From an uncultured delta proteobacterium (GTDB lineage: Bacteria; Myxococcota_A; Polyangia; Polyangiales; Polyangiaceae), in contig CAVXQJ010000001.1 of the NCBI GenBank assembly GCA_963763745.1, positions 194,431-258,430 of the forward strand: a stretch of 64,000 nt of DNA, given 5' to 3'. Position numbers and translations under genes: made by a program. A model generated the notes under the pieces. The model saw only the letters and a program-made list of their open reading frames with translations, made no database searches and had not been told where the DNA came from. Numbering within the stretch: position 1 is the first letter of the stretch; every line of letters starts with the position of its first letter. This document shows, in pieces, positions 10,153 to 53,739 of this stretch.

Positions 10153-10154
10153 CG

Positions 10155-10853: not shown

Positions 10854-10955
10854 AGGGTCTCGCTTACCTGTTTCTTTCGCAAACAGTGGGCGAAAACGGC
10901 TCGAAGGCGTACGCTTTTGTGGCCTCTCGTCCGTCCAACGGACCAGGTTTCCCCG

Positions 10956-24875: not shown

Positions 24876-25020
24876 TCATCGGTGCGCGCAGACCGAAGTT
24901 GCGTCTCCGATGCACTCACCTGAACGAGCGTGCGGAAAATATTTTTGCGCTCCTCAAGCATCTCGAACGGTGATGAACCTGAATCGTGGACGGACGTGCG
25001 TTCACGAAACGAGGAGCCCC

Positions 25021-26802: not shown

Positions 26803-26869
26803 TCCATCGACGCAATCTGCTGGCACCGTCGACCGAAATAGCCCATCTTCATCTCATCGGTGACGGACG

Positions 26870-27646: not shown

Positions 27647-27675
27647 GACATTTGCCGGCAACTGAGGTGATGATC

Positions 27676-28260: not shown

Positions 28261-28304
28261 CGTACTCGAGTGACCGCCCACGCGACACGCGTTAACGTGA
28301 CGGT

Positions 28305-28895
28305 GTGACCCCGACGAACGCGTTGGTTTGTGCCGCCATCGGCGCGGTGCTCGGCGCGGCGCTGACGTGGAGCAAGCCGGGCGAGCGCGCGCCGTGGTCG
28401 CAGACGCACGTCGTCGGCGGCGCGTATCGCGGGCAGGAGATCGTCATCATTGCGAGCCCTGCGCGCGTTCGGCTCGCTGCGGCGATCGCGTGGGGAGTCA
28501 TCGTCGTCAGCTGCGTTCACGCGGCGATGCTCGCGCTCGAAATGATGTCCACGACGATAACGACCTCGGGTGGTGGTGATTGCGCGACGTTTCCGTGCGA
28601 CAGCCAACCGCGCATCATGGTCGTGAGGAATGCGCCGCCAGAAGTGCTGCTCGTCGACCTGCTTTGCATCATCGCGACGGGCACGTTCATCGGCGCGCTC
28701 GGTAGTTGGGCGATGCACGCGCCACACGATTCGGCGAGCGCGCGGCGCATCAGCCCGCTCGTCGCGAGCGCAATGCTCGTCGTGCTCGCGCTCGCACGCG
28801 GCCCGGTGACGCCGATCTTCTTCGGCTTCTCCGTGCTGCTCGCGGCGTGCGTCGCCGTGTCCGCCGCGTTCGTCGCGTTCGCGCGAATGAAGTAA
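28305..28895 (+). CDS. hypothetical membrane protein (about 4 TM helices)
   Basis: GTG start; hydrophobic helices (LVCAAIGAVLGAAL, AAAIAWGVIVVSCV, LCIIATGTFIGALGSW, MLVVLALA...); moderate support only. Confidence 0.4.
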   Translation: MTPTNALVCAAIGAVLGAALTWSKPGERAPWSQTHVVGGAYRGQEIVIIASPARVRLAAAIAWGVIVVSCVHAAMLALEMMSTTITTSGGGDCATFPCDSQPRIMVVRNAPPEVLLVDLLCIIATGTFIGALGSWAMHAPHDSASARRISPLVASAMLVVLALARGPVTPIFFGFSVLLAACVAVSAAFVAFARMK

Positions 28896-28918
28896 CGCGC
28901 GCAGTGATCGCCGCTCGA

Positions 28919-29293
28919 TTACCGTGACGCAACTTGCCAATCCGCGTACGCACTCGCCATGGCGGCGGCGGCTTCTTCCGGACGCACTCCTCCGACGCCG
29001 GTACAGAGTCCGGGACAGTAGATGGATCGCACGTTCTCGGGATGCGACGCCGCAACACGCAACACTGCGCGCATCGCGTCGCGCACGAGCTCCTGCACTT
29101 TCGGAATCGCCGCTGCGTAAGCGGCATCGATCCCTCCGTCCATCAAACCATCGGCGTTCGCGGGCGAAACGACCGTGTTCTCTGCGAGTGACACGAGATC
29201 GCCCGAGAGGACGCTCACTGCGGGAAAGCGCGCGAACGCCTTCTTCAAGGCTTCGACGACGTCAGCATCCAGGTCGACGAATGTGAGCTTCAT
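28919..29293 (-). CDS. mini macro-domain-like protein (124 aa)
   Basis: VLSGDLVSLAENTVVSPANADGLMDGGIDAAY resembles the macro-domain ADP-ribose-binding N-terminus, and SIYCPGLCTGVGGVRPEEAA resembles the C-terminal loop, but the central ~50 aa of a canonical macro fold are absent. Confidence 0.45.
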   Translation of the reverse strand: MKLTFVDLDADVVEALKKAFARFPAVSVLSGDLVSLAENTVVSPANADGLMDGGIDAAYAAAIPKVQELVRDAMRAVLRVAASHPENVRSIYCPGLCTGVGGVRPEEAAAAMASAYADWQVASR

Positions 29294-35741: not shown

Positions 35742-36543
35742 GTGCCCGAAGGCGACTCGATTCACAAGCTCGCGAACGCGCTCACGCGCGCGATCGTTGG
35801 CAAGACCGTCCGCGCCTTCTCCGCGCACACCGTCATGGATCACGTGGCGCGCACGGTCATCGGCGCGAGAGTCGAGAGCGCGACGGCGCGCGGAAAAAAT
35901 CTGCTCGTCGCGTTCGACGACGGCCGCACGCTCCACATCCACTTGCGCATGCTCGGTCGCGTTCGCATCGTCGCGCCGAAACCCGCACCGCGCCGCATGC
36001 CGCAGCTGTGGATCGAATTCGACGACGTCGCCGTGATGGGTTGGAAGATCCCCGTGCTTCGTCTCTTGCGAAAGGGCGCAGCCGAGCGCGTGCCGGAGAT
36101 CGCATCGCTCGGTCCCGATCTCCTCGCGGAAGACTTCGACGAACGCGATGCGCTCGCGCGTTTTCGCGCGAACCCCGATTGCGAAAATCGGCGAAGCGCT
36201 CATGCTCCAGCGCATCGCCAGTGGCATCGGCAACGTCTACAAATCGGAGGTGCTCTTCATCGAGCGCGTCCATCCGCGCGCGCGGGTTCGCGATCTCGAC
36301 GACGCCGCGATCCTCGGGCTCGTCCGGCGCGCACGCGCGCTCCTACGCATGAACGTCGCGCGCCGCGGTCCACGCGTGACGCGCGGCCTCCTCGGCGCGC
36401 GCCACCACGTCTACGAACGCGCTGGCCGTGCGTGCTCGCGATGCCGCACCGCGATCAGCGTGATCCGGCAGGCGAACCGATCGACGTACTTCTGCGCGAA
36501 GTGCCAGGATGGTGCTGCGAAGAGTGGGCGAGCCGGGACTTGA
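35742..36543 (+). CDS. nei: Fpg/Nei family DNA glycosylase (endonuclease VIII-like); frame disruption at the CCCC run near 36174
   Basis: GTG start then PEGDSIHKL (catalytic Pro2/Glu3); H2TH IASGIGNVYKSEVLF and zinc finger CSRCRT...CAKCQ lie in the +1 frame (track ORF 36148..36543). Confidence 0.7.
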
Positions 36544-36597
36544 ACCCGGAGCCAACGGATTAAGAGTCCGCTGCTCTACCAATTGAGCTACTCGCCC
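36525..36597 (-). tRNA. tRNA-Lys (anticodon CUU)
   Basis: Reverse complement GGGCGAGTAGCTCAATTGGTAGAGCAGCGGACTCTTAATCCGTTGGCTCCGGGTTCAAGTCCCGGCTCGCCCA folds as a cloverleaf: 7-bp acceptor, D-arm, anticodon loop CUCUUAA, T-arm GGGTTCAAGTCCCGG. Confidence 0.85.
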
Positions 36598-39001: not shown

Positions 39002-39597
39002 AGCGCGCCGTGGTGCTCGATCGCGACGGCACGCTCGTCGACGTCGTGCGCGACGAAGAGACGGGGGCGATCGTCACCGCGTTCCATCCCGATCAGCTTC
39101 GCGTGCTTCCGGGCGTGATCGACGGGTTGCGCGAGCTCGCGGCCGCCGGCTTCGATCTCGCGATCGCGACGAACCAACCGGGCCCCGCGAAAGGGCAGTA
39201 CTCGCGCGCGTCCGTCGAGAAGACGAACGCCGCGCTCGTCGCGCTCTTCGCCGCGCAAAGCATCACGATCGCGAAGGTTGCAGTCTGCATGCATCATCCG
39301 GACGGCGGCCCCGGCGGCGACGCGTCGCTCGTCGGGCCGTGCGCGTGCCGCAAACCGAAGCCGGGAATGCTCCTCGATCTGCAGCGCGATCTCGGCTTCG
39401 ATTTCAACGCGTCTTGGATGATCGGCGACACGACCTCCGACGTCGACGCCGGTCGCGCCGCGGGCATGCGCACCGGTTTGATCTTCGACGAACGCCGATG
39501 CGAGCTCTGCCCGCTCCGCGGCGGTCCGAAGTGCACGCCCGATCTCCACGCGCGCGACTTCCGCACGCTCGCGCGTCTCGTCTTGGAGAAGTCGTGA
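38998..39597 (+). CDS. gmhB: D,D-heptose 1,7-bisphosphate phosphatase (HAD-IIIA)
   Basis: GTG overlapping the gmhA stop (GTGA); AVVLDRDGTLVD, ATNQPG, MIGDTTSDVDAGRAAG HAD motifs. Confidence 0.8.
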   Translation: MKRAVVLDRDGTLVDVVRDEETGAIVTAFHPDQLRVLPGVIDGLRELAAAGFDLAIATNQPGPAKGQYSRASVEKTNAALVALFAAQSITIAKVAVCMHHPDGGPGGDASLVGPCACRKPKPGMLLDLQRDLGFDFNASWMIGDTTSDVDAGRAAGMRTGLIFDERRCELCPLRGGPKCTPDLHARDFRTLARLVLEKS

Positions 39598-39645
39598 AGC
39601 TCGACGTGGAACGCGTCTGCCGCGTTCTCTTGTGGATCGCGTTGC

Positions 39646-41769
39646 GTGTGGTTCGCGTTCTGCGCGTTCTGGGGCATCGCCGCGATGCCGACCGCGGGGC
39701 ACCTCGGCGCGGGGTCCGCGGTGTCGACGATGATCGCGGAGGCGTCGCTCCAGTGGCACACCGTCTATCCGCTCTGGGATTGGTATCGCGTCGTCGATCC
39801 GTATCCCGCCGCGGTCTACACGCACCATCCATTCGGCGTGTATTGGATGTCCGCGGTGTTCGTGAAGCTCCTCGGGCACCGCGACATCGTGTGCAACTTG
39901 CCCGCGGCGATGATGAGCGCGTCGATGCCTCCGCTGCTCTATCGCATCGGCAAGCGCGCGTGGGGCGAGGTCGCGGGCACGGCGACCGCGCTCGGGTTCG
40001 TGGTGCTCCCGATCACGATTGGCTTCTCGATTTTCCACAACGTCGAAGTCATCACGATGTTCGGCAGCGCGCTCTTCTTCTTCGGTCACCTCGAATACCA
40101 AGCGACGGGCCGCCGCCTTCATCTCGTGACGAGCGTCATCGGCGCGACGATCGGCACCTCGGGCGATTGGCCCGGCTACTTCCTCATCGCGCCGCTCCTC
40201 GCGTGGGCGTTCTTGCGCGCGTTCACGCTCCCGCAGTGGATGACGCCGCACTTGAATGCGTCGCGGTATCACACGTGGTGGGCGTGGTGCGTCGCGGCGA
40301 CGCTCGCGACGTGCGCGCTGTGGATGGGCCTCTATCAACACGTCGATCGCATCGGCGAGTGGCTCGCGCAAGGCAAGTCGCGCGGCGGCGGGAGCGACAT
40401 GCCGCTCGCGGCCGTGCTCGAGTCGCGCAAGAACTGGATCGACTTCTCGTTCACGCCGCTCGCGATCGCCGTCGGAAAGCTCGCAGTTCCCGTCATCATC
40501 GTACGCGTCCTCGTTCGGCGTCGCGACGAAGAGGTTCTCTCGCTCGCGGCGCTGTTCGGCGCGGTGCTCCAGTACGTCGTCTTCAAACGCGGCGCCGACA
40601 TCCACGTCTTCTGGCCGCACTATTTCGGCACGTACTACGCGCTCGCGGTCGGGCAGCTCGTCGCCACGGCGGAAGGCATCGGTCTCTTCGTTGGGCGATT
40701 CATCGCGCCGATGCGCTCGCGCATGATCGCCCTCGTGCTCGCGGGTCTCACGTCGGTCGTCGCGATTTTCATGATCCTGCCCGACGGCGTCCGCTCGCTC
40801 GGCATTTGGCGGAGATCGGGCGGCAAGTACGACGACCGCGGCGCGCTCTGGGACAGCGACGCGGATTTCTTGTTCGTCTTGAAGAAGGTCGCGCGCCCGC
40901 GCGTGCATCGCGGCGAGATGCTCGCGCATCAAGGCCCGTGGGGATGGGAACAAGATTGGGCGCTCGCGGGCCTGTCGGAAGAATCGCAAGACCCGACGCC
41001 GCGCGACCCGTTCTGGTTCGCGCGCGCGCGCGAGCTCGGCGCCGATCACTTGAAGCGACTCGCACCGAAGAACCACTTGCGAATCTACGGCGCCGACGGC
41101 GTCGTCGTCGTCACGCGCGGCGAGCCGAACGCTCCGCTCGATGCGTTCTCTTTGCACGAGCGCGAGCCGAATCCATTCGAGTGGATGTTCACGAACAACA
41201 CCGAGCCCGTGCGCACCCTCGACACGACGCCCGACCCGTTCTTGACGTGGGAGTGGCGCGTCCATCTCGATCAAGCCGCGACGCCGCCGACCGCCGCGCC
41301 GACGACGATCGACGAGCTTCGCATCGCGCACAACGTCGCCGTCGCCGGAGGCAACACGGACGAAGCCGAGAAGCTCCGCGAGCGCCTCGTCGACCGGCTC
41401 GATCGAACGCCCGAATCTCATTTCGACGACGGCTCCGAGCTCATGGGCATCCGCGTCACGCGCGGCGTGAAGCCGACCGTCGAGATCTACGTTCACGCGG
41501 GAGGACCCACCGCGGGCGACACGACCTTCATCGTCCGGTCGAACATCGTCAAAGCAAACCCGCTGAGCCTCGTACCCATCGACGCGACCGAGTGCGATCA
41601 CGCCGTGCCGCCCGCGCTCTCGACGAAGCTCTGGAAGCAAGGCTTCGTCTACGTGTTTCACGCGGCGCTCAATCACCGCATCGGCCTCGAGAAATATTGG
41701 GGCACGCTGGGTCGGCGGGCCGCGTCGCGCGACGGCGCGCCGCACATCGATCTCGTCGAACTGCGGTGA
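39646..41769 (+). CDS. polytopic membrane glycosyltransferase (GT-C fold, PMT/ArnT-like)
   Basis: 707-aa ORF with about 11 predicted TM helices in the N-terminal 450 aa and a soluble C-terminal domain; an alternative GTG at 39594 (GTGA overlap with gmhB) in another frame, VKLDVERVCRVLLWIALRV, could be the true N-terminus if a 1-nt indel is present. Confidence 0.6.
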   Translation: MWFAFCAFWGIAAMPTAGHLGAGSAVSTMIAEASLQWHTVYPLWDWYRVVDPYPAAVYTHHPFGVYWMSAVFVKLLGHRDIVCNLPAAMMSASMPPLLYRIGKRAWGEVAGTATALGFVVLPITIGFSIFHNVEVITMFGSALFFFGHLEYQATGRRLHLVTSVIGATIGTSGDWPGYFLIAPLLAWAFLRAFTLPQWMTPHLNASRYHTWWAWCVAATLATCALWMGLYQHVDRIGEWLAQGKSRGGGSDMPLAAVLESRKNWIDFSFTPLAIAVGKLAVPVIIVRVLVRRRDEEVLSLAALFGAVLQYVVFKRGADIHVFWPHYFGTYYALAVGQLVATAEGIGLFVGRFIAPMRSRMIALVLAGLTSVVAIFMILPDGVRSLGIWRRSGGKYDDRGALWDSDADFLFVLKKVARPRVHRGEMLAHQGPWGWEQDWALAGLSEESQDPTPRDPFWFARARELGADHLKRLAPKNHLRIYGADGVVVVTRGEPNAPLDAFSLHEREPNPFEWMFTNNTEPVRTLDTTPDPFLTWEWRVHLDQAATPPTAAPTTIDELRIAHNVAVAGGNTDEAEKLRERLVDRLDRTPESHFDDGSELMGIRVTRGVKPTVEIYVHAGGPTAGDTTFIVRSNIVKANPLSLVPIDATECDHAVPPALSTKLWKQGFVYVFHAALNHRIGLEKYWGTLGRRAASRDGAPHIDLVELR

Positions 41770-41791
41770 GCCGTCGTACCCTCTCGCGCCG

Positions 41792-42700
41792 ATGACCGTC
41801 GCGTTGGATTTCATCGTCGGCTTGCGCGAGGCGTTCACGTTGCGCCACGCGGAGGAGAGGGCCGTGGCCGACGGCGACGCGCGACGCTCGGAGACGCGTC
41901 GCCTCGCCTCGGCGGCGCGCGCGCGGCGAGCTGCTGCGCGAAGGCTCGCGAGCCCGATCGCCGCGGTCACGCTGCTCCGCGAGGCGCTCGAAATCGCGCT
42001 GTCGCGGCGCGTCAGCCCGAGACGAAGACGCCGGATGGCGCTCGACCGGCTCGCCCGTGACGCGCCGTGACCTCGCCTCGTCGGCCGCCGCTCTACGTGG
42101 ACGAGCTTCCGTTCGCCGCGCGCGGAAGCCCTCCGCGACGCGCTCGACGACGAGCTCACGCGGCGCCTCGGCGCGCTCGACACGCGCAGCGTCGTCGTCG
42201 ATTCGCGCGCTCCGCGCCGGGCGATTCGCGGCCGCGGTCGCGTTCGTGCTCGCGCTCGATCGGCACGGGCGTACGTGCGCGCGAAGCTGCTCCCGCACAA
42301 CGTGGCCGCTCGGAAAACCCGTGCTCACGAACGGGCTCGCTGCGACTCGAACGGCGGCGCGACGTCGTCGATGGACGGACGCGCGGCACGTTCGGCGTCT
42401 ACACGAACGACGCGCCCCGCCCGTTCGTGATGGTCGACCTCGAGAAGTCGCTACGCGCATCACGCGCGATCCGCGTGTTCAACCGCGGCGACGGGTGGTT
42501 CGACGACAGCCTGCCGCTCGCGATCGAAATCTCCGAGGACGACGGTCGCCGTTCCGCGAGCCCGTCGGCGAGCGCACGCAGCACTTCGACATGTGGACCA
42601 TCGATCCTGCCGCCAGGGCACGCGCGCCCGATTCGTCCGCGTCGCGAAGCTCACGCGCGGTTACATCGCGCTCAACGAAATCGAGATCTATTCGCGTGAC
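41792..42700 (+). pseudogene. discoidin (F5/8 type C) domain protein, fragmented over at least 3 frames
   Basis: MTVALDFIVGLREAF start; GTFGVYTNDAPRPFVMVDLEKSLRASRAIRVFNRGDGWFDDSLPLAIEISEDDGR, FREPVGERTQHFDMWTIDP and the terminal LTRGYIALNEIEIYSRD lie in three different frames. Confidence 0.45.
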
Positions 42701-42719
42701 TGAACGCTCCTGCCGCTGC

Positions 42720-45700
42720 GTCGCCCGCCATCGCCCTCGATGTGTTCCGCGTCATCCTCGCGCTCGGCGCGGTCGCGCTCGTCGTCGCGCCCGATCTTCA
42801 GACGATGAACAGGCTCGGCGGTCACGACTGGGACCCGATGGAGGCGCGACCGCTATCCTCGCGATCAAGACGATCAAGCACTACCACCAGTTCCCTTTTT
42901 GGAACCCGTACAGCTGCGGCGGTCACACGTGGTGGGGCGGTCTCGAGAACGGCGTGAACCTCGTCTCGCCGTTCTTCCCCGTCTACATGCTGTCCCGCTC
43001 CCGTCGCGATGCGCATCGAGGTCGTGGGCACCGCGCGCTCGGCGTCATCGGCAGCGTGGATGCTCGCCGGGCGCTTCACGAAGAGCTCCGGCCTCAAGCT
43101 GCTCGTCGCCGTCGCGTTCGCGCTGAACTCGCGGTGGTCGCTCCAGGCGTCCGTCGGGCCACACGTGGCACTTGTATTATGCATGGATTCCGTGGGCGCT
43201 CTTCTTCCTCGATCGCGCGCTCGCGATGGATCCAGCCGACACGCGGCGCGTCGCACGGTGCGCGAGCTCGCGCTCTTCGGGCTCGATGCTCGCGATGATG
43301 GTCTACAACGGCGCGATCTACCCGGTGCCGCAGGCGATCCTGCTCGCGGGCCTCTACGCGATCGCGTGCGCGGTCGCGATGCGCTCGTGGCGTCCCGTCG
43401 GGCTCACGATCGCGCGGTGGGCTCTTCGCGTTCGCGTTCTCCGCGCCGCGCCTCTTCCGATCGTCGACATGCTGCGGCGCTTTCCGCGCCTCGTCGACTC
43501 GACCGAGACGATGGACCTCGCGGCGTTCGTCGGCATCTTCACCGCGAAGACGGGTGACCCGCGACCCGGCGTCGGACCATGGGGCTGGCACGAGTACGGC
43601 GACTACGTCGGGTGGATTCCGTTCGCGTTGATGCTCGTCGCGCCGTTCGTCGCGCGTCGCGCGCGCGAGCGTGGGATGGCGTCGCGGGCGTCGTCGTCGA
43701 TCGTGCTCGGGTTCGGGCGCTTCCACCACTAGGCGCCGTGGGGCTCTCCACGACCACTTGCCGATCTTCGAGTCGCAGCACGTCCCGTCGCGCTGGCTCT
43801 ATCCCGCGGTGCTCGTGTTGCTCGTCGCGCCGCCGGCGCGATCGAGCGCGTGCTCGTGCGGCAGAAGCGTCGCACGCTCCTCGAGATCGCGTTGGTCTTC
43901 GTCGGCGCGTACGTCGCGCTCGACGTCTCGCTCGAATCGCAGCGGCCGCTCGTCGGCGCGCTCGTCGCGTCCGCAGCCGCGCCTCGAGGAGAGCTTCGGC
44001 CCATTCCACCAAGAGAAGGTCGCGCCGCCCACGCTGCGCTACGCCGAGTCCGACTGGGCGCCGCCGTCGTACCCGAGCATGATCGCGAACATCGGCGTGA
44101 TCGAGTGCAGCACGTTCCCCGGTCTGCACAGCTACTACCGCAACAAGGACGGATCGATGCCGGGGCTCGGCGCGAAAGGAAAAGGGCGAGCCGGGGTACC
44201 CCGGAGAAGCGTTCTTCGCGACGGGTGAGGGCTACGCGAGCATCGTGTCGTGGACGCCGAACGCCGTCGTCGTTCACTACAGCGAACGCGCACCCAGGCG
44301 ACATGCTGCATGATGAACCAAAATTGGGATCCGGGTTGGAGCGCCGACGGCCACGCGGCGCTCGATTGGGCGAGCGCGTCGGGACGCGCGTCGAGGCGAG
44401 CGACGGCGAGATGACGTTCCGCTATCGCTCGCGCTTCTTCGTCAGCGGCGTGTTGATTTTCTGGCGACAGTCGTCGGGCTCTTCGTCTTCCGCAAGCACG
44501 ACGCTCAAAAGCAGGCGTAGTCGTGCTCCGCGACGCGCGCCGTTTTCTTGCGAAGCATGCCGAGCGCGTCGTGTTCGGCGGCGTCGTCTCGTTCGTGTTC
44601 TTTTTTCACGCGAAGTACCACGAGCCATGGCGCGACGAAGCGCAAGCTTGGCTCATCGTGCGCGCGGAATCGCTCGGCACGCTGATGCAAGCTTGCGGTT
44701 CGAGTCGCATCCGCCGCTGCCCTATCTGATTCTCGACTCGCTCGCGCGTCTTCACGCTCCGCTCCCGCTCGCGATCCTCGCGGCGATCAACACGGCGTTC
44801 TTGCTCGGAGGGACGAACGCGCTCGTCCGCGCGATGGGCGCGTCGCGTCGCTCGGGCATCGTCTTCACGCTCGTCTGCGCGTGCACGTACATCTACGTCT
44901 ACGAGCTCGGCGTCGTCGCGCGCGCTTATGGCCTCGGCCTCGGCCTGGCGTTTTGGATGATGGCCGCGATGCACCGCGCGCTCGCGAGAGGCGAGCACCG
45001 CGATCGTCGCATCGCGGGATTTACGGGCGCTGCGTCCGCGCTGACGTCCGCGACCGCCGCCGTGTACGTCGCCGCGGCAGTCGTCGTCTTCGGCGTGATG
45101 TGGATCTCGCGCAACCGAATCGCCGATTCGTTCGCGCTCTCTGGCTCGCACCGATCGCGCCCGCCATGTGGCTCGTGAACGACGTCACGAAGCCGCTCCC
45201 CGATCGATGGATTCAATTCGAGCACCTCGAGCTGCCGCAACGCACGTGGGACGTCGACTGGCGCGAGTCGCGCAAGTGGCTGGAAGAAATCTTCGGCGTC
45301 GGCTCATCGAATAGCTGGTGGCCGACGAAGGACATCCCGCCGACGCACTTCGATTGGGCCATCGAAGGTCTTCGCATGCTCGTCGTCGCCGTCGTCGTCG
45401 TGAACGGCGTGCGCTTCGTGCGCGAGTGGCGCACCGCGTTCTTCGTGCCGGTCGCGAGCGCGCTTCAAGTCGCGGGCATCTTCTACGTGATTTTCTACCG
45501 CGGGCTTCGTCCGGACTATCGCCATTGGGCCTTCGTGATGGCGACCGTCCAAGTCGTGCTCGGCGGGCTCTGTTTGGTCGAGGCGCGGAAGAGCCTCTTA
45601 TTGAAGGCGATCCGCCGCGGCGCGATCGTGCTCCTCGCACCGTGGCTCTGGAACCAAGCGACGATCGCGTACTCCAACATCGAGCAAGACGCGTCCTATC

Positions 45701-46071
45701 CCTTTTCGCTCACGAAAGAGTTTGCGAGCTTCCTCCCGCGCGGCGCGCGCGTGATCGTCGATCGCGACGTCTTCGGCACGTCGATCTCGTATTGGCGCCC
45801 CGATGTCGTCACGCGCAGCCCCGACCACCGCGGCCGCTATTTCACCTACGTGCGCTGGGATCGCGCGGAAGCGCATAGCTCGCCGCGCGTGCTCGCGCAC
45901 GACGAGTGCGGAAAGTCCACGACGCGAACCGTCTATCTCTTCGGCAACACGGCAGACGTTCCCACCGAATGCGTGAGCCCACTGGCGCCGCCCTACACGG
46001 GGACGAAGGCGCGTACGGACGAGTACGGGCGCGAATGGGCGGTGAGCTGCAATTGCTTGCTGCGACCGTGA
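42720..46071 (+). pseudogene. YfhO-like large polytopic membrane protein, fragmented over at least 7 frame changes
   Basis: Protein-like hydrophobic segments (AILAIKTIKHYHQFPFWNPYSCGG; YYAWIPWALFFLDRALAMDP; VFTLVCACTYIYVYELGVVARAYGLGLGLAFWMM; final 396-aa intact stretch 44881..46071) alternate between all three forward frames. Confidence 0.45.
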
Positions 46072-46075
46072 TAGA

Positions 46076-47421
46076 GTGCGCGCCTCGAAAATCATGCACG
46101 ACATCGGAATTCTTGGCGGCGGCATCTCGGGTCTCTTCACGGCTTACTTTCTCGGCGGCGACGTAGAGGTCCTCGAGGGTGACGACCGAGTCGGCGGGCT
46201 CGCGCGCTGCTTCGGCGGCGAAGGCTTCCGCTCGGACATCGGCGGTCACATCCTCTTCTCGAAAGACAAAGAAGCGCTCGCCCACGAGCTCGCCGCGCTC
46301 GGCGACAACCGGCGGCAGGGCATTCGCGCGAACAAGATTTTGTACGGGGGCCTGCACGTCAAATATCCGTTCGAGAACGGCATCGACATTCTGCCGAAGG
46401 AAGATCGCGTCGACATCCTTCACTCGTTCATCGACAACCCGCACAAAGCGACGACGCCGACGAACTTTCGCGAGTGGATGTATCACGTGTTCGGCGACGG
46501 CATCACGAACCGGTACCTCCTCCCGTACAATGAAAAGATCTGGAAGACCGACCCTTCGCAGATGAGCCTCGAGTGGGTCGGACGCGTGCCCACAATCGAT
46601 CTGCGCGACTTGATCAAGACCGCGATCGGCATCCAGACCGAGGGCTACACGCACCAACTTTATTTCGACTACCCGAAGACCGGCGGATTCGAGTCGTTGC
46701 CCAAGGCGGTCGCCGCGAAGATCGCGTCGAAGATCACGACCGGCTTTCGCGTGGCGAAGGTGAAGCGCATCGACGGTGGATTCGCCGTGATCAGCACCAC
46801 CGGCGAAGAGCGCCGCTACAAACAGCTCGTCGCGACGATCCCGCTGACGACGCTCTTCGCCGCGCTCGACGACGTGCCGAAAGACGTCAACGACACCGCG
46901 CATGCGCTGCGATTCAACTCGCTGCGCGTCGTGCTCGTCGGCGTGAACGTGACGAACCTCCCCGCGTACACCGCGCTCTACGTCCCCGAGCCGAAGTCGC
47001 TCTACCACCGCGTTTGTTACAACCAAGTCTTCAGCCCCGACATGGTGCCGGCGGGCTGCAACTCGGTGTCGTGCGAGATCACCGTGCCGCCGGGCGGCGA
47101 TCTCGATTCGTGGAGCGACGAGAAGGTTCTCGAGCGCACAATCGACGATTGCATCGCGACCAAGTGATCGACAAATCGACGGTCGTGTACCGCCATGTTC
47201 ATCGCGAGAAGTTCGCCTACGTCGTCTACGACCACGGCTACTCCGATCGCGTGCGCAAGATTCGTGACTTCACCGACTCGCGCGGCATTCACCTCGCGGG
47301 TCGTTTCGCCGAGTACCAATACGTGAACACCGACGCGTGCGTGCGGCGCGCGCTCGATCTCGCGCGGCAGCTCCGCGCGGGCGACATCGCGCCCGAGGCG
47401 CGCATTCCGAAGACGTGGTGA
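46076..47421 (+). CDS. FAD/NAD(P)-binding oxidoreductase (amine-oxidase/UDP-galactopyranose-mutase-like flavoprotein); 1-nt deletion near 47160
   Basis: GILGGGISGL dinucleotide-binding motif; the C-terminal 85 aa (VIDKSTVVYRHVHREKFAYVVYDHGY...HLAGRFAEYQY) continue in the -1 frame after a premature TGA. Confidence 0.65.
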
Positions 47422-47425
47422 GACG

Positions 47426-48853
47426 ATGGCCGAGCGTTACGCAGAAGAAGTGAACTACGAGCTGGCACGCGCGATCGGACGACCGCGCACCGCGCTCGAC
47501 GTGGGTTGTGGTCGTGGTCAGAACGGCGCGCTCGCGAAAGCGAAGGGCGCCAAGGTCACGGGCATCGAAAATTGGCCGGCGTCGGTGGCCGCCGCGCGCG
47601 AGCGCCTCGACGAAGTGATCGACGCGGACATCGAAGCGGACGACGTCGACCTCGGCGCTCGTCGATTCGATCTCATCATCTTCGGAGACGTGCTCGAGCA
47701 CACGCGCGAGCCGCGCCGCGTGCTCGATCATTTCCTTCCATATCTCGAAGACGGCGGCCACGTGATCGTCTCGCTGCCGAACGTCGCCGCGTGGCCCGTT
47801 CGCTTGCAGCTCCTCGCGGGTCGCTTCGAGTACGCGAAGAAGGGCATCCTCGACGAGACGCATCTTCGCTTCTTCACGCGCGAGAGCGCCGTGCGCCTCG
47901 TCGAAGACGCGGGGCTCGAAGTGCTCTCCGTCGGGCTCAACCCGATGCTCGTGCGCGCGGGTCTCGGCGCGATCGAGAAGGTGATGGGCGGCAACCCGAA
48001 CGGCGAGGCAGCAGACGCGTCCGCCATCCTCGATAACCCGCTCTACAAGGCCTATTTGAAGGTCGTTCGACCGATCGAAGGCGAGGTCGCGAAGGTCGCG
48101 CCGAACGCGCTGTCGTTCCAAACGGTGATCGTCGCGCGCAAGCGCCCCGCGCGTCGCAAGCTCTCGCTCACCGTCGGGATGATCTCGATGAACGAAGAGC
48201 GCGCCGTCGCGTCCGTCATCGACGACATCCACGCCGCAGCGCCCGAAGCGGAGATCCTCCTCGTCGACAGCTCGAAGGACAAGACACCGGAGATCGCGAC
48301 GGCGAAAGGCGCGCGCGTCGTGCGGCAGTTCCCGCCCAAGGGCTACGGCCCCGCGATGTTCCGACTTCTCCACGAGGCGAAGACGGACGTCATCATCACG
48401 CTCGACTGCGACGGCACCTACCCGACGGATCGCATCCCGGAGCTGCATCGCATGATCGAAGAGGGCGCGGACCTCGTGAACACGACGCGCACGCGGCATC
48501 GTCCGGACGCGATGCCGTTCGCGAACTTCCTCGCCAATCGCGTCTTCGCGGGAACGGCGCACGCGCTCCACGGGCTCCCGACGACCGACGTCCACAGCGG
48601 CATGCGCGCGTATCGCACGTCGATGCTGCGCGGCATCGACGTCGACCCGAATGGCGCGGCGCTCCCCGTCGATCTCTTCGTCATTCCCGCGCGCCGCGGT
48701 TACCACCTCGTCGAAGTCGAGATCCCGTATTTCGTGCGCATCGGCGACACGACGCTCCACCGCTTCGACAGCACGATTTGGACGTTCAAACGTTTGCTGC
48801 GCGACGCGTCCGTCGGCGGCCGCACGAAGCACGGGCGCTGGGAAAATCGCTGA
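47426..48853 (+). CDS. bifunctional class-I SAM-dependent methyltransferase / family-2 glycosyltransferase fusion
   Basis: N-terminus LDVGCGRGQNG...DLIIFGDVLEH (Methyltransf_11-like); C-terminus LTVGMISMNEE...LLVDSSKDKT...TLDCDGTYP (GT2/DPM1-like); intact 475 aa. Confidence 0.8.
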   Translation: MAERYAEEVNYELARAIGRPRTALDVGCGRGQNGALAKAKGAKVTGIENWPASVAAARERLDEVIDADIEADDVDLGARRFDLIIFGDVLEHTREPRRVLDHFLPYLEDGGHVIVSLPNVAAWPVRLQLLAGRFEYAKKGILDETHLRFFTRESAVRLVEDAGLEVLSVGLNPMLVRAGLGAIEKVMGGNPNGEAADASAILDNPLYKAYLKVVRPIEGEVAKVAPNALSFQTVIVARKRPARRKLSLTVGMISMNEERAVASVIDDIHAAAPEAEILLVDSSKDKTPEIATAKGARVVRQFPPKGYGPAMFRLLHEAKTDVIITLDCDGTYPTDRIPELHRMIEEGADLVNTTRTRHRPDAMPFANFLANRVFAGTAHALHGLPTTDVHSGMRAYRTSMLRGIDVDPNGAALPVDLFVIPARRGYHLVEVEIPYFVRIGDTTLHRFDSTIWTFKRLLRDASVGGRTKHGRWENR

Positions 48854-48856
48854 GCG

Positions 48857-50148
48857 TCACCAGTCGACCCATTGGGTCATGTTGCATTTCCTGAGACCGT
48901 ACGGCCCGACGTCGCCGATGTAATAACAAAGGTCGGCTTCGCGGTAATGCCAGCGGCTCATCGCGAGCCACAAGACCAGCACGACCGGGCGCGTGCGAAG
49001 AAGGTTGCCGAGCGCGAGAAAGAGCGGAAACGCGATGAGCACGTAGCGCGACATGCCGCCGAGATAAATCTGCAAGCTGCCGTAAATGGTCAGCCCGTAG
49101 ACGAGCACGACGAGCGCGTAGAAGAACGCGCGCTCCGATGCCGCGAGGTGCTTGAACGCGAGCCGCGCTCCAAGCAAAAACCAAAGCAGCATGCCGATGG
49201 CCCACACGCTGTCGTGCACCGCGCCGTCGATGGAGTGCATGATCCATTCGGGCTTGGGATCCGATATCTGCGAGATGCTCGGGTCGTGCGAGTAAATCAC
49301 GCCGTGCGCGCGCGTGTAGATCATCGGGTCGTCGAATCGCGACCAGAAGTAGCCCATCACGACGAAGGCGCCCCACGCGGACAGCGGAAAACACGCTGCG
49401 CGCGCGATCCACGCGCCGGCGCCGCGTGGTCTATTTTGCCACGTCGCGACGAGCAAGCCGACCGAGAGCGCGACCGCGCCCGCGACTGCCGTCACGCGCA
49501 TCGCGGTCGCGCATCCCATCAAGAACGCCGCGAGCTCGAAACGCTTGTGCGCGAATGCGACGTAAGACGAGAACGTGAAGAAGAGCGTCAATGGCTCCGT
49601 GGCGACGAACACGAGATAACAAGACGCCGGATACGCGTTGAGCAGGATGAGCGAGAGCCACGCGGTCACGAGACCAAAGCGTTTCGTGATCGCTGGCCCG
49701 TCCAAAAGAAGAACGTGAGGAACGACGCGAGCAGCGACAGGCCCCAGAGCGCCAGGTCCATCGGCATCGCGTGGAGACGCGTGACGAAGCGCCCGAGCAT
49801 CGGATAGCCGGGATAGAACGTGAGCGTGCAGCGCCCGTCGTACATGAGGATGTCCGCGTCGGACATTCGGCCGCGCGGGCACGCCGTGTACCCGCGAAGC
49901 GCGATCGCGATGTAGTGCTCCGCGTCCCAACGCGCGACGGTGAGTCGCTTCGCGTTCGAAGCGTGCGTTTGATGAATCGGATCGACGAACGCCGGTGGAT
50001 CATTCGGCGCGCGATCGAACGGCTCCTGAAATCGCTGGCGCGCCATGTCCTTCGCGTCGAGCACGTGCATCGCGACGAGCAACGCCGCGAAGAAGACGCG
50101 GAACCACGCGCGCGTCAGAAGCCACTCGATCCGATCGCGCATGCTCAT
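48857..50148 (-). CDS. polytopic membrane protein, putative glycosyltransferase (GT87/DUF2029-like); frame disruption in a TTTT run near 49690
   Basis: N-terminal part (track ORF 49666..50148: MSMRDRIEWLLTRAWFRVFFAALL...) and the C-terminal ~290 aa of track ORF 48857..49930 are both hydrophobic and protein-like and join if one T is added. Confidence 0.55.
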
Positions 50149-50161
50149 GCGCTCGCCAGAT

Positions 50162-51133
50162 TCATCCGCCGAAGATTTCGCGCGCGACCTCGGACACGGC
50201 TCGCGCGACCGCTTCGTCCGACGTGTTCTTCACGCGGAAACCGAGGTCGCGAGCTTCTCTCGATTGAGGCGCGAGAACGAAACGTCGCCGGGCCAGCCTT
50301 GCGGCGTCTCGCCGAGAGTCGATGCGCGCCTTCGGGTACGGCGACGCGGCGACGACGAGCTCGGCGATGCGCTTCACCGAGGTCCAGTCGGGCGGCGCGA
50401 GGTTGTAGATGCGAGTTTCCTCGCCCTTGGCGTTCTCCGAACCGAAGAGCACGCCTTCGGCGCAGTCGGTGACGTGCAAGTATGGTTTGACTGCCGGCCG
50501 TTGCCGAGCACGTCGAGGTGGTCGGGGTGCGCCTTGAGCTTCTTGCAGAAGTCGAGGATCGCGCCGTGCGTGCCGCGCGGGCCGACGACGTTGCCGAAGC
50601 GGCAGATGTACCGCTGAAGCCGAAGCACTCGCGTACGCAGCGATGAGCGCCTCGCCCGCGAACTTGCTCGCGCCGTAGAGCGAGATCGGAAGATGTCCGA
50701 GCTCGCATCTCGGCTGCATGCCTCGGACGTGTTGCCGTAGACCGTGCCGCTCGACGAGAAGACGAAGCGCTTGATGCCGTTGAGGCGCGCCGCTTCGAGC
50801 GCGTTGTACGTCGCGATGGTGCCTTGCTCGAGATCGAGTCGCGTGCGCTCGAGACCCCAGCGCGCCTCCGGGTTCGCCGCGAGGTGGAACACGACGTCGT
50901 GGCCCGCCATGGCCTTCGAGCGCGTCGAGATCGAGCGCGTCGCCGACGACGAGCGACGCGCGTCTCGCCTCGAGGTGGCCCGCGACGAACTCGCGCTTGC
51001 CGACCGAGAGGTTGTCGAAAATCGTCACGCCGCCGCGAGCGACGAGCAGATCGACGAGGTGGCTGCCGATGAAGCCCGCGCCGCCGACGATGAATGAACG
51101 CATTGAAAGGCTGTTTAGCGTGTTCGCTGGCAA
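50162..51133 (-). pseudogene. NAD-dependent epimerase/dehydratase (GalE-like) fragmented by at least 4 frame changes
   Basis: MRSFIVGGAGFIGSHLVDLL Rossmann start; AGHDVVFHLAANPEARWG, YGASKFAGEAL (YxxxK) and YRFGNVVGPRGTHGAILDF segments lie in alternating frames (track ORFs 50162..51133 and 50374..50910). Confidence 0.55.
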
Positions 51134-51150
51134 GCTGCTAGAAGACCCGC

Positions 51151-51807
51151 ATGGCTATCTTCATCGACAGCTCCGACCCGAAAGAAATCAAGGACCTCTT
51201 CGGGTGGGGCGTGCTCTCCGGTGTCACGACGAATCCACTCATCATCTCGAAGGAGCGGCCCGACGCCGACCTCGGCGAAATCGTCCGCGAGATCCTGTCG
51301 GTCAGCTGGGGCGACGTCAGCGTCGAGCTCACGACCGAGACGGAAAAAGAAATGCTCGCGGAGGCCTCGCAGTATCACGCGTGGGATCCGCAGCGCATCA
51401 CGATCAAAGTTCCGATGAGCGAGACGGGCTTGCGCGTTCTTCACCAGCTCTCGAAGAAGGGCGTGAAGACGAACGTCACGTGTCTCATGTCGATGAACCA
51501 GGCGTACCTCGCGGCGCTCGCGGGCGCGACGTACGTGAGCATCTTCTCCGGCCGCGTGCGCGACATGGGCTACGACGTGAAGCCCGTGATCGAGTCGACG
51601 CGTCGCGTGCTCGATCGCGAAGGCCTCGCGTCGAAGATCATCGTCGGCTCGATGCGCCACATGATGGACGTGAACGAAGCGCTCGACGCGGGCGCACACG
51701 TCCCGACGATCACGCCGCCGATCCTCCGCAAGATGGTGTGGCACCCGCGCACGATCGAGACGATCAACGAGTTCAACACGGCTTGGAAGAACCGCGGCAA
51801 GAAGTGA
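51151..51807 (+). CDS. transaldolase/fructose-6-phosphate aldolase family (short Tal/Fsa type)
   Basis: MAIFIDSSDPKEIKDLFGWGVLSGVTTNPLIISKE...; 218 aa typical of TalC/Fsa. Confidence 0.85.
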   Translation: MAIFIDSSDPKEIKDLFGWGVLSGVTTNPLIISKERPDADLGEIVREILSVSWGDVSVELTTETEKEMLAEASQYHAWDPQRITIKVPMSETGLRVLHQLSKKGVKTNVTCLMSMNQAYLAALAGATYVSIFSGRVRDMGYDVKPVIESTRRVLDREGLASKIIVGSMRHMMDVNEALDAGAHVPTITPPILRKMVWHPRTIETINEFNTAWKNRGKK

Positions 51808-52313
51808 TGCGTGTCGCGCCGTTCGTCGCGTTCGCCGCGGCGTGCGGCGCGCGCACCGAGCTCGGCGGTGTGATTCCGGAGACGCACGGCGATGCCGCGT
51901 GTGCGCCGAGCACGTTCGATCTGCAGGTCCCCATCGAATCGCCGTGGTTCGACACCGGCATCGACGTCGTCTCGGGCGCCGACGTGAAGATCCACGCGAG
52001 CGGTACCGTCCGTTACGGCGGGAACGGGCAGCAAACGACCGACGCGAACGGCGGCAACTTCGACGGACAAAAATTCTTCTCGACGACCGTTCTCCCGACC
52101 ACCGTCGTGTGCAGCTTGATCGGAAAAGTCGGCGACACGCCCGTTCCGAGCGGCATGGAAGGCGACGGCCCCGGGTTCGTCGGCGTCGACTACCACGAGA
52201 CGATGACGACGTCGGGCCGGCTGTTTTTGGGCTTCAACGATCAACTCGGTCAGTTCGGCGACAACAGCGGCGCGTTCACCGTATCGATCACGATCGAGCC
52301 TCCGTGCCCATGA
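51807..52313 (+). CDS. secreted PA-IL (LecA)-like lectin-domain protein
   Basis: ATG overlaps the transaldolase stop (TGATG); signal/lipobox FAAAC; CSLIGKVGDTPVP...LFLGFNDQLGQFGDNSGAFTVSI parallels LecA ...GNNSGSFSVNI. Confidence 0.6.
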   Translation: MRVAPFVAFAAACGARTELGGVIPETHGDAACAPSTFDLQVPIESPWFDTGIDVVSGADVKIHASGTVRYGGNGQQTTDANGGNFDGQKFFSTTVLPTTVVCSLIGKVGDTPVPSGMEGDGPGFVGVDYHETMTTSGRLFLGFNDQLGQFGDNSGAFTVSITIEPPCP

Positions 52314-52332
52314 ATCGCGCTACGCTCGCCCG

Positions 52333-53739
52333 ATGATTCGACTCGAGTTCGTCGGCGCAGCGCAGACCGTCACGGGTAGCAAGCACCTCGTTCATACGAA
52401 GCACGCGACGATCCTCCTCGACTGCGGGCTCTATCAAGGGCGCCGCCGCGAAGCGTACGACGTGAACAAGAACCTCGGGTTTCGCGCGGCCGACGTCGAC
52501 GTCATGGTGCTCTCGCACGCGCACATCGATCACTCGGGCGCGCTCCCGATGCTCGTGAAGAGCGGCTACGACGGCACGGTCTACGCGACGCCCGCGACGC
52601 GCGACCTCTGCGCCGTCATGCTCGAGGACGCCGCGGCCATCCAGAAACAAGATGCAGACTACATCAATCGAGAAATCGACAAGCACCACATCGACATGGA
52701 GCCGGCGGACCCGCTCTACGACTCGCACGACGTCGTGAAGGTGCTCGAGCGCATCATCTCCGTGCCGTACGCGCGGAGCATTCCGATCGCGGACGGCGTG
52801 AAGCTCACGTTCCACGACGCGGGCCACGTGCTCGGGAGCGCGATCACCGTCCTCGACATCGAAGACGAAGGCACGACGAAGCGTCTCGTCTTCACGGGCG
52901 ATCTCGGGCGCAATCACATTCCGATCCTGCGCGACCCCGAGGACGTGTCCGGCACGAGCATCCTCATCACCGAGAGCACGTACGGCGATCGCCTGCACCC
53001 GCCGCTCGAAGCGATGGACGAAGCGCTCGTGAAGCTGATCAATCGCGTGCACGCGCGCGGCGGAAAAATGATCGTCCCGTCGTTCGCGCTCGAGCGCGCG
53101 CAAGAGGTCGTCTACGCGATCAAGCGCCTTCGCGTGAAGAAGCTCATCCCGCAAATTCCCGTGTACGTCGACTCGCCGCTCACCGTGAAGATCACCGACG
53201 TCTTCAAGATGCACCCCGAGTGTTACGACGAAGAGACGCGCGCGCTCATCGCGAGCCGCGAGTCGCCCTTCGACTTCGACGATCTCCACTACATCTCCGA
53301 TCGCGAGGACTCGAAGGCGATCGACCAAGACAAGGAGAGCTCGATCATCATCTCGGCGAGCGGGATGTGCGAAGCGGGGCGCGTGCTCCATCACTTGAAG
53401 GCGGGCATCGAGGACGCGAAGAACGCCGTCGTCATCGTCGGTTTTCAAGCGCCGCACACGCTCGGTCGTCGCATCGTCGAGCGCCGTCAGCGCGTGAAGA
53501 TTTTCGGCGTGGAGCGCGAGCTGCGCGCGGAGGTCGCCGTAATGAACGGGTTCAGCGCGCACGCGGACCAAACCGATCTCTTGCGCTATGCGGAGCACTC
53601 GAAGCAAACGGGAACGCTGAAGCAAGTCGTCCTCGTGCACGGCGAGCCGGGCCCGCAGAAGGTGCTCAAGGAGAAGCTCGCGGAGAGGGGCATCACGAAG
53701 GTCGCGAACCCCGCGCCGCAAGACGTCATCGACGTGTGA
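52333..53739 (+). CDS. beta-CASP family MBL-fold RNA-metabolising hydrolase
   Basis: LDCGLYQG, HAHIDHSGALP (HxHxDH), beta-CASP region and C-terminal HGE motif; 468 aa. Confidence 0.85.
   Translation: MIRLEFVGAAQTVTGSKHLVHTKHATILLDCGLYQGRRREAYDVNKNLGFRAADVDVMVLSHAHIDHSGALPMLVKSGYDGTVYATPATRDLCAVMLEDAAAIQKQDADYINREIDKHHIDMEPADPLYDSHDVVKVLERIISVPYARSIPIADGVKLTFHDAGHVLGSAITVLDIEDEGTTKRLVFTGDLGRNHIPILRDPEDVSGTSILITESTYGDRLHPPLEAMDEALVKLINRVHARGGKMIVPSFALERAQEVVYAIKRLRVKKLIPQIPVYVDSPLTVKITDVFKMHPECYDEETRALIASRESPFDFDDLHYISDREDSKAIDQDKESSIIISASGMCEAGRVLHHLKAGIEDAKNAVVIVGFQAPHTLGRRIVERRQRVKIFGVERELRAEVAVMNGFSAHADQTDLLRYAEHSKQTGTLKQVVLVHGEPGPQKVLKEKLAERGITKVANPAPQDVIDV

Follow-up and report, generated by a model that had tools for sequence, protein, structure and literature searches.

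The dense disruption of reading frames over 41.70–45.11 kb of the window, the whole 64,000-nucleotide stretch of DNA analyzed here, is very probably a base-level consensus indel artefact of a noisy metagenome assembly, with the three affected genes being intact and functional. The 276.6-kb contig that contains the window is almost certainly metagenome-assembled and of long-read type. The three genes are part of a cell-surface glycan locus of a Polyangiaceae-type soil myxobacterium, the order of which is heptose-nucleotide pathway, GT-C, discoidin-domain gene, YfhO-like gene, accessory membrane protein, amine oxidase, and methyltransferase-GT2 (Table 1). The original prediction had proposed either a graveyard of pseudogenes in a locus that is being lost or a local misassembly. 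Decay was not borne out: the lesions are indels only, selection is not relaxed, and lesions are private wherever this could be tested. An assembly fault was rightly suspected, but it concerns base-level consensus quality and not structure, the region being colinear with the intact loci on contigs L025 and L027.

Frame shifts were detected by a GC3 frame plot, three-frame translation, tblastn with intact orthologues, and a frameshift-aware protein-to-DNA aligner run with four to six independent guides. All four approaches agreed on the hopping among the three forward frames that had been described before. The earlier count of at least ten transitions was real but an undercount, approximately 24 to 32 shifts being found within 41.70–45.11 kb. 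Shift counts remained steady over frameshift penalties from −12 to −25, and eight intact control genes yielded 0 events with the same aligner. At least 22 events were located within 2.76 kb, whereas the background is 0.46 per kb (Poisson P ~4e-20); event density was ~8–11 per kb in the hotspot and ~0.5 per kb elsewhere. A guide-free codon-usage Viterbi tracker likewise picked out 42–46 kb. The hotspot had been delimited as 41792–46071; the dense shifts extend over 41.70–45.11 kb, but 45.11–46.07 kb is clean.

Table 1. Genes and frameshift events of the glycan locus. Positions refer to the window.
Feature	Position	Strand	Basis or remark
GT-C (PMT_2) glycosyltransferase gene	39594..41769 (start probable)	+	Pfam PF13231; called ORF 39646-41769
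F5/8-type-C (discoidin) domain gene, N-terminal anchor, ~303 codons	41792..42703	+	frameshift-aware alignment to L025 orthologue
Discoidin indels	~42061, 42119, 42195, 42260, 42309, 42338, 42361, 42546, 42620	+	frameshift-aware alignment
YfhO-like polytopic membrane protein gene, ~592 codons	42742..44520	+	frameshift-aware alignment; stop TAG 44518-44520
YfhO-like events, 5′ part	~42843, 42997, 43035, 43057, 43157, 43246, 43280, 43416, 43454	+	frameshift-aware alignment
YfhO-like events, 3′ part	~43681, 43697, 43746, 43829, 43965, 44182, 44285, 44310, 44378, 44458	+	frameshift-aware alignment
Separate membrane-protein gene, 515/516 codons, no Pfam family	44523..46071	+	orthologues P0121, P0123
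Flavin amine-oxidase gene	46076..47421	+	single −1 error 47149; called ORF stops early, 47167
Methyltransferase-GT2 fusion gene	47426..48853	+	intact in window, inside L028-divergent block
428-codon membrane protein gene	48857..50142	−	single −1 error 49693; called ORF 357 aa
NAD-dependent epimerase gene	50168..51103	−	second dense cluster, 7 events, 50248-50913

The discoidin-domain gene contains seven to nine indels of 1–2 nt. Its frameshift-aware alignment with the 303-aa orthologue on L025, a JGI contig, covered the full length with 62% identity and 0 stops; BLASTP of the corrected protein against this orthologue gave 58% identity (E 5e-108). The L025 protein matches PF00754 (E 1.4e-10) and PF22633 (E 6.4e-11), and by this orthology the discoidin label appears correct; the match of the corrected window protein to PF22633 is weak (E 0.052; 14.6 bits, under the cut-off of 27.8). 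The three frames noticed before within ~150 nt at the C-terminus were found again, with shifts near 42546 and 42620.

The YfhO-like gene harbors 13 robust events and at most 19 in total. Its corrected product is 79.5% identical to P0001 encoded on L025 and 84% identical to the L027 sequence over the 3′ third. At E ≤ 1e-10, 277 homologues were obtained and, among the matches listed, these are mostly intact proteins of ~600 aa. PF09586 (YfhO) was matched by 6 of the 30 aligned family members (best E 4.8e-8), and a Pfam search with the corrected window protein or P0001 gave no PF09586 match. The YfhO-like label is thus appropriate as a distant family name, but not as a closer assignment. A profile search found no relative of solved structure; the product is probably a GT-C-type glycosyltransferase. 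The fragments at 44523 and 44881 had also been attributed to this gene; they belong to a separate gene coding for a membrane protein of 516 aa. This third gene is 83% identical to P0121 and 59% identical to P0123, both intact orthologues of ~516–519 aa, and, compared with L025 and L026, constitutes an accessory insertion. Two −1 errors interrupt it, one at ~44693 and one at ~45107; from 45108 onward, the frame is undisturbed up to the stop codon. A Pfam search with the raw ORF fragments of the region gave no match because the fragments are too short.

The comparison with intact orthologues suggested in the original prediction yielded full-length corrected proteins of 62–85% identity with 0 stops. 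Identities were 62%, 79.5%, and 84.5% for the discoidin, YfhO-like, and third gene, respectively, as compared to 69% for GT-C and 64% for GT2 as intact neighbors; conservation of the corrected proteins is thus as good as or better than that of the neighbors. Omega (NG86) was 0.34 for the YfhO-like gene, with a dS of 0.39 that is not raised, versus 0.43 for both intact GT-C and GT2. The F5/8 gene gave an omega of 0.54, and the comparison of L028 with L025 yielded the same value; in the N-terminal half of this gene, conservation is poor in all copies compared. Furthermore, the window YfhO-like protein is 76–80% identical to five relatives, which are mutually 71–81% identical; hence, the window branch is not long.

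Every frameshifting lesion is an indel of 1–2 nt and none is longer. Insertions are roughly as frequent as deletions; in the YfhO-like gene the aligner reported 12 insertions and 7 deletions, and 5 and 7, respectively, were counted at base resolution. No in-frame stop was present in the ~1400 corrected codons (~300 + 590 + 515) of the three genes; a lone stop symbol sits at a frame junction and disappeared with a closer guide. Neither larger deletions nor gene shortening were found, lengths being 302/303, ~592/599, and 515/516 codons. Real decay, as in Mycobacterium leprae and recent host-restricted pathogens, proceeds by nonsense substitutions and by deletions of varied size with a deletional bias; it is also accompanied by elevated dN/dS and by lesions common to close relatives. 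The present region resembles the clusters of the M. leprae type in that adjacent multi-frameshift genes lie between intact genes, but the signs of such decay were not seen: stops, relaxed selection, and a natural indel spectrum were all absent. It is therefore very improbable that the discoidin, YfhO-like, and accessory membrane genes are very recent real pseudogenes and that the glycan locus is being lost. The deposited sequence does contain the frameshifts, and the databases searched contain no independent copy of the window allele over 41.7–43.5 kb; yet the 24–32 indels are accompanied by neither nonsense substitutions nor deletions of more than 2 nt, and neither a deletional bias nor an excess of amino-acid divergence is seen. 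In bacterial mutation spectra, substitutions are approximately ten-fold commoner than indels, so that this many neutral indels should have been accompanied by several stops and some hundreds of substitutions. Surface-glycan loci vary between strains, their genes are often dispensable, and the mosaic with contig L028 described below shows variability here as well; frameshifts, however, also occur outside the glycan locus in the MutM-like and phosphodiesterase-like genes, and in an adjacent sugar-nucleotide pathway gene.

The transitions had been described as not obviously homopolymer-associated, and we found the same. A majority of the base-resolved indels are located outside runs of ≥3. Homopolymers were rejected as the cause, the homopolymer density of the hotspot being equal to the window average. 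High GC content was likewise rejected as a sufficient cause, equally GC-rich sequence (2–6 kb) being without an excess of frame switching. No slippery or repeat motif was found at the shift sites. A GATC motif was present at 6 of 16 indels versus 13% expected (P = 0.013), a post hoc observation that is suggestive at most.

In other bacteria, phase variation is a classic property of genes that modify glycans, a background that favors programmed or reversible shifts, through phase variation at simple repeats, ribosomal frameshifting, or transcriptional slippage, with the genes being expressed. Many purported pseudogenes have also proved to be really genes, though this was attributed to assembly error (PMC11017572). 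Nevertheless, such shifts are extremely improbable here: the indels do not lie at homopolymers or simple-sequence repeats, 13–19 of them occur per gene without a common motif, and many relatives encode the orthologue in one continuous ORF. To our knowledge, no mechanism decodes ~20 mixed +1/−1/+2 shifts in one gene.

A direct test for private lesions was provided by L028, an independent ENA contig (ERZ25039489 contig_121823) that may share the sample of the window. Both are nucleotide-identical over ~44.45–47.9 kb and 48.85–50.2 kb, ~4.8 kb in total, and 2 substitutions were counted over 44.83–47.92 kb, a length of 3.1 kb. The two blocks contain 6 single-base indels, each of which breaks a conserved gene in one assembly alone; the window is broken at ~44692, ~45106, 47149, and 49693, and the remaining two indels affect L028 at different sites. 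None of the four frameshifts of the window is thus common to L028, and these near-identical assemblies differ mainly by indels, as expected of an artefact. The L028 amine oxidase, for instance, has the C that is lacking in the window (GAT[C]TGC) and stays in frame at this site, with no substitution difference from the window. Both deletions of the third gene are absent from nucleotide-identical L028 as well as from L027, a Logan contig of 83.6% nucleotide identity to the window that is assumed to be short-read derived. In L027, no interruption occurs in the 3′ third of the YfhO-like gene, anywhere in the third gene, or in the first part of the amine oxidase; against it, the window showed 12 frameshifting gaps, all in 43680–45107.

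For 41.7–44.4 kb, where the databases searched contained no near-identical independent copy of the window allele, the test is indirect. A protein search with a 190-aa segment of the hotspot matched only the window's own fragment and that of L028. In L028 the same two genes, YfhO-like and discoidin, carry 21 and 8 frameshifts at positions unlike those in the window, so real pseudogenes would require an independent shattering of the same genes. In the YfhO-like gene, about six shift positions of the window and L028 lie within 5 residues of each other; by a rough hand estimate this is about the chance level for 20 events in 600 residues, and the coincidences were rejected as a signal. The indels could also be real as the outcome of a localized, indel-specific mutational burst that hit the discoidin and YfhO-like genes independently in the window and L028 lineages. 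Such a burst, conceivably an error-prone repair or recombination tract located at glycan-cassette junctions, would have inactivated these genes too recently for substitutions to have accumulated; we regard it as highly improbable.

Window and L028 form a mosaic in which identical blocks alternate with blocks of 20–28% divergence, separated by sharp junctions; the glycan locus is thus variable. The dense clusters end or begin within ~100 nt of these junctions, where identity to L028 rises from ~72% to 95–100%. Assembler haplotype switching could yield such a mosaic, and the window YfhO-like protein occupies an unusually central position among its relatives, as a blended consensus might. Both observations would fit a structural misassembly, i.e., a chimeric join or collapsed repeat giving a sequence that matches no real molecule. 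This is very unlikely: in gene order (GT-C, F5/8, YfhO-like, [third gene], amine oxidase, GT2) as well as in the orientation, spacing, and length of the genes, the window agrees exactly with the intact L025 and L027 loci, and therefore nothing is mis-joined. In the colinear alignments no segment was seen to be duplicated, missing, or rearranged, and a misjoin predicts one or two breakpoints, not ~30 single-base indels. The alternation of blocks of ~100% and 72–80% identity, together with a third gene that only some relatives possess, also resembles the mosaic cassette exchange of O-antigen and capsule loci. With metagenomic contigs only, cassette exchange is inseparable here from haplotype switching by assembler or polisher; it concerns the locus and not the frameshifts.

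According to the consensus-error explanation, random insertions and deletions of 1–2 nt would have been left in the consensus at ~1% per base over 41.70–44.46 kb and again over 50.25–50.91 kb, the rate elsewhere being ~0.05%. The dense patches fall into blocks for which co-occurring or related strains have an allele of 20–28% divergence, adjoining identical blocks. Given this location, the effective read depth for the window's allele in the patches was probably low. Alternatively or additionally, polishing may have piled up reads that belong to the other allele and are anchored in the identical blocks, and this would have corrupted the consensus. The model does not explain everything, since two blocks divergent from L028, at 47.9–48.85 and 51.1–52.3 kb, are clean in the window. 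Indel-rich consensus errors in long-read assemblies that create spurious pseudogenes were reportedly described by Watson and Warr in 2019.

Similar artefacts are known from Nanopore and PacBio CLR sequencing, where indel errors result in spurious pseudogenes (PMC11017572; PMC8103633); many bacterial pseudogenes are assembly artefacts dependent on platform, assembler, and coverage (PMC11017572), and the frameshifts in Nanopore MAGs worsen at low coverage (PMC8103633). The window shares with these cases single-base indels, fragmented gene calls, conservation of the corrected sequences, errors private to one assembly, and conserved genes hit contig-wide. In contrast to typical, even long-read errors, those found here reach ~1% per base in patches of 2.8 and 0.7 kb, and most lie outside homopolymers. 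Errors of long-read assemblies are ~98% indels, and the collapse of diverged alleles adds further indels that truncate ORFs (PMC8445201). In the collapsed haplotypes of Trypanosoma brucei Lister 427, allelic differences shift read alignments, and the resulting indels truncate ORFs (PMC8445201). The dense patches here are similar in that they lie within allele-divergent blocks with identical blocks on either side, a comparable pile-up of reads being presumed here; however, Lister 427 is a diploid eukaryote of ~1% heterozygosity, and the bacterial strains or species considered here are 20–28% apart.

The flanking genes had been regarded as intact. This applies to methyltransferase-GT2, the L028 copy of which contains 3–9 frameshifts, but not to GT-C, which has a +1 event at ~39646 and a compensating +1/−1 pair at 41702/41731; the latter, at the 3′ end of the gene, forms the left boundary of the dense error block. 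The same three events were obtained against the 723-aa orthologues of both L025 and L026. The event near 39643–39646 is a probable +1 error; hence, the true start of GT-C is probably 39594, overlapping the stop codon of the HAD gene. The right flank, which includes the amine-oxidase gene, is not wholly intact either, given the −1 at 47149. The product of the 428-codon gene further downstream is 99.3% identical to an intact L028 protein of 428 aa, with one event. The epimerase cluster begins at a mosaic junction with L028 at ~50.2 kb, and the corrected protein is 85% identical to that of L025 with 0 stops. Across the syntenic block, isolated frameshifts in conserved genes were found in the phosphodiesterase (34647), MutM-like (36187), NTP-transferase (37098), GT-C (39646), and amine-oxidase (47149) genes, and a further one in the 428-codon membrane protein gene (49693). 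Frameshifts in conserved genes across the contig are thus observed, as expected of an artefact. An rRNA operon was considered as the source of the odd composition at 24–30 kb and rejected.

Frameshifts amount to ~0.5 per kb over the contig in general and rise to ~10 per kb in the patches; therefore, pseudogene counts, inference of gene loss, completeness estimates, and protein predictions are unreliable until it is polished, and the same applies to sister contigs such as L028. Fragments are already present in public databases as separate proteins, namely P0122 (301 aa) and P0132 (145 aa). Where a long-read metagenome assembly derives from a mixed population, error patches in strain-variable blocks beside strain-identical ones are to be taken as a practical warning. 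The biological import of the disruption itself is little: the genes are usual constituents of a conserved surface-glycan locus of the Polyangiaceae and most likely intact.

Examination of the window with a GC3 frame plot revealed that the high-GC3 phase switches repeatedly between 41.7 and 45.1 kb, while most genes of the window stay in a single phase over 1 kb or more. A frameshift-aware protein-to-DNA aligner was written for the analysis and run with four distant guides, a close one from the soil-metagenome contig L025 (JGI), one from the Logan contig L027, and the database protein P0121. Event counts were stable across frameshift penalties from -12 to -25, independent guides reproduced the event positions, and eight intact control genes gave 0 events. 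At least 22 events were found in 2.76 kb as compared to a background of 0.46/kb elsewhere in the syntenic block (Poisson P ~4e-20); the stretch from 45.11 to 46.07 kb was free of frameshifts. A guide-free Viterbi tracker based on codon usage counted 16 switches at 42-44 kb, 9 at 50-52 kb and 7 at 44-46 kb, and 0-5 in every other 2-kb bin of the window. The frame hopping originally predicted here was confirmed by several methods and is more marked than had been stated.

Genes and frameshift events in and around the locus (window positions; strand in brackets)
Gene	Extent	Frameshift events
Phosphodiesterase/sulfatase-like		isolated, 34647
MutM-like Fapy glycosylase		isolated, 36187 (possibly also 36410, 36680)
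HddC-like NTP-transferase		isolated, 37098
GT-C	39594-41769 (+)	isolated at 5' end, 39643-39646 (+1 near 39646); compensating pair, 41702/41731
Discoidin	41792-42703 (+)	7-9
YfhO-like	42742-44520 (+)	13 robust, at most 19 in total
Third membrane protein	44523-46071 (+)	two, 44693 and 45107
Amine oxidase	46076-47421 (+)	isolated, -1 at 47149
Methyltransferase-GT2	47426-48853 (+)	intact
428-aa membrane protein		isolated, 49693
NAD-dependent epimerase	50168-51103 (-)	dense cluster, 7 of 1-2 base: 50248, 50319, 50497, 50610, 50630, 50710, 50913

The window has a GC content of ~65% and is DNA of a Polyangiaceae-type myxobacterium; a protein search found relatives of the intact GT-C protein (39646-41769) confined to Polyangiaceae, Byssovorax and Minicystis genomes. 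A stretch at ~24700-29000 has 57-59% GC and weak GC3 periodicity; no Pfam family matched its ORFs of 689, 258, 247 and 196 aa, and no rRNA is present in it. The sole tRNA of the window is a tRNA-Lys at 36524-36597 (-). Two huge neighboring ORFs at 10047-19905 (+), TamB/AsmA-like (1776 aa) and Omp85/POTRA (1529 aa), resemble a TAM-type pair for outer-membrane assembly; they are read in different frames and share 55 nt.

The best-conserved relative locus, on L025, shows full synteny with the window in the order NTP-transferase, GHMP kinase, SIS, HAD (these four representing the heptose-nucleotide pathway), PMT_2 GT-C (723 aa), F5/8-type-C (303 aa), membrane protein (599 aa), amine oxidase and GT2. 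All its genes are single ORFs; therefore, the frame-hopping region sits within a conserved surface-glycan locus. The fragments at 44523 and 44881, previously assigned to the YfhO-like gene, are parts of another membrane-protein gene of 516 codons with two intact orthologues, the database proteins P0121 (83% identity) and P0123 (59%). This third gene is lacking in L025 and the further syntenic contig L026, but in L027 it lies between the YfhO-like gene and amine oxidase; it is an accessory insertion. Only 9 homologues of it turned up among 5.8 billion proteins, and it matched no Pfam or NCBIfam family. The discoidin label stands by orthology (E 5e-108 to an L025 protein matching PF00754/PF22633), the domain in the corrected window sequence scoring below the Pfam threshold. 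The YfhO-like label holds only as a distant-family call, with PF09586 matched by 6/30 family members; a profile search for this family gave no solved-structure relative. Both flanks had been regarded as intact; the methyltransferase-GT2 gene is, but the GT-C and amine oxidase genes are not quite.

The hotspot lesions are exclusively indels of 1-2 nt. Base-resolved comparison with L027 (83.6% nucleotide identity) revealed 13 gaps, one a natural codon indel and 12 frameshifting (5 insertions, 7 deletions), the latter all inside 43680-45107 with 0 in the following 1.4 kb. As the original prediction had suggested, they lie mostly outside homopolymers; the density of homopolymers is the same in the hotspot as on average in the window. 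Programmed or phase-variable frameshifting can practically be dismissed: the shift sites carry no repeats or motifs, and the shifts are too many and of mixed sign.

Comparison with intact orthologues, which had been proposed as a check, showed matching lengths after frame correction (302/303 codons for discoidin, about 592/599 for YfhO-like, 515/516 for the third gene), no in-frame stop in the three genes, and identities of 62%, 79.5% and 84.5%, respectively. The intact neighbors reach 69% (GT-C) and 64% (GT2), so that the hotspot proteins are no worse conserved. Nei-Gojobori omega of the YfhO-like gene was 0.34 (dS 0.39), below the 0.43 of intact GT-C and GT2. The corrected YfhO-like protein shares 76-80% of its residues with each of five relatives, which are only 71-81% identical among themselves; therefore, the window branch is not lengthened. 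In bacterial mutation spectra, base substitutions are ~10 times commoner than indels, and genuine pseudogenes are marked by a deletional bias and by larger deletions. With about 25-30 neutral indels one would therefore expect hundreds of substitutions, several stops and loss of length, none of which was observed in the hotspot genes.

A direct test was provided by a second assembly. The window's own gene calls P0122 and P0132 are fragments in a protein database, located on a 276,592-bp contig; through P0130, a member of the same 90% protein cluster, L028 was identified, an independent contig in ENA (ERZ25039489 contig_121823, 10.8 kb) aligning end to end with 41575-52335. The alignment is a sharp mosaic, with identity of 95-100% over ~44.45-47.9 and 48.85-50.2 kb and of 61-90% over 41.6-44.4, 47.9-48.85 and 50.2-52.3 kb, reflecting either a recent exchange of glycan-locus cassettes between lineages or an effect of the assembler or polisher (haplotype switching/allele conversion). 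Only 2 substitutions separate the assemblies over 44.83-47.92 kb (3.1 kb). Both identical blocks together hold six single-base indels, each breaking a conserved gene in just one assembly (the window at 44692, 45106, 47149 and 49693; L028 at the sites corresponding to 44809 and 46338). Indels outnumbering substitutions, with private lesions in both assemblies, are the hallmark of consensus error. The divergent block of L028 is broken up to the same extent as that of the window: the same pair of genes carries 21 and 8 events, but at other positions; near-coincident positions are few, about the chance expectation by a rough hand estimate. In L027, presumably short-read, the 3' third of the YfhO-like gene, the whole third gene and the start of the amine oxidase gene are uninterrupted. 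The pseudogene graveyard originally considered is not supported: the spectrum of lesions, the selection tests, the indels private to one assembly and the shattering of L028, parallel but not identical, all speak against real recent pseudogenisation, which is very improbable.

The other suggestion, local misassembly, was right in pointing to an assembly problem but not to a structural one; a structural misassembly is likewise very improbable, as it is contradicted by the perfect agreement with L025 and L027 in both colinearity and lengths. Isolated single-base frameshifts in conserved genes, at ~0.5/kb, mark the whole contig as error-prone. The corrected epimerase protein is 85% identical to its L025 orthologue. 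Both dense clusters adjoin window/L028 mosaic junctions: the last events of the first (44310, 44378, 44458) fall where identity climbs from ~72% to >95%, and the second begins ~40 nt past the identity drop at ~50.2 kb. Dense clusters of L028 likewise lie within its divergent blocks. Haplotype switching at the junctions may have contributed to the origin of the errors.

Long-read assembly errors are ~98% indels, and collapse of nearby allelic variants produces indel errors truncating ORFs (PMC8445201); frameshifts in Nanopore MAGs get worse at low coverage (PMC8103633). If the population was mixed, the depth of several strains would be pooled over the blocks they share, which would be polished well, whereas strain-specific blocks would receive only their own lower depth, and long reads that stem from the other allele and are anchored in a shared block may pile onto them; either could yield an indel-rich consensus. 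This model does not explain why, in the window, the divergent blocks at 47.9-48.85 and 51.1-52.3 kb are clean. GC content as sole cause was rejected by window composition and the Viterbi tracker. Six of 16 base-resolved frameshifting indels (45106, 46338, 47149, 49693, 44458, 43696) lie at most 8 nt from GATC as compared to 13% expected (P=0.013, post hoc), and 4/6 indel differences in the L028-identical blocks are at GATC; this weak enrichment may indicate motif- or methylation-dependent basecalling error.

In bacteria, many 'pseudogenes' are artefacts of the assembly, for which platform, assembler and coverage are responsible (PMC11017572). Very probably, the hotspot is a local concentration of base-level consensus errors within a glycan locus that is otherwise ordinary and conserved. 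Fragment ORFs of the window contig and L028 have been deposited as separate 'proteins' (P0122, 301 aa; P0132, 145 aa; P0134, 115 aa), and the assembly errors have therefore spread into protein collections. The hotspot is not a biological feature; its worth is that of a data-quality warning.
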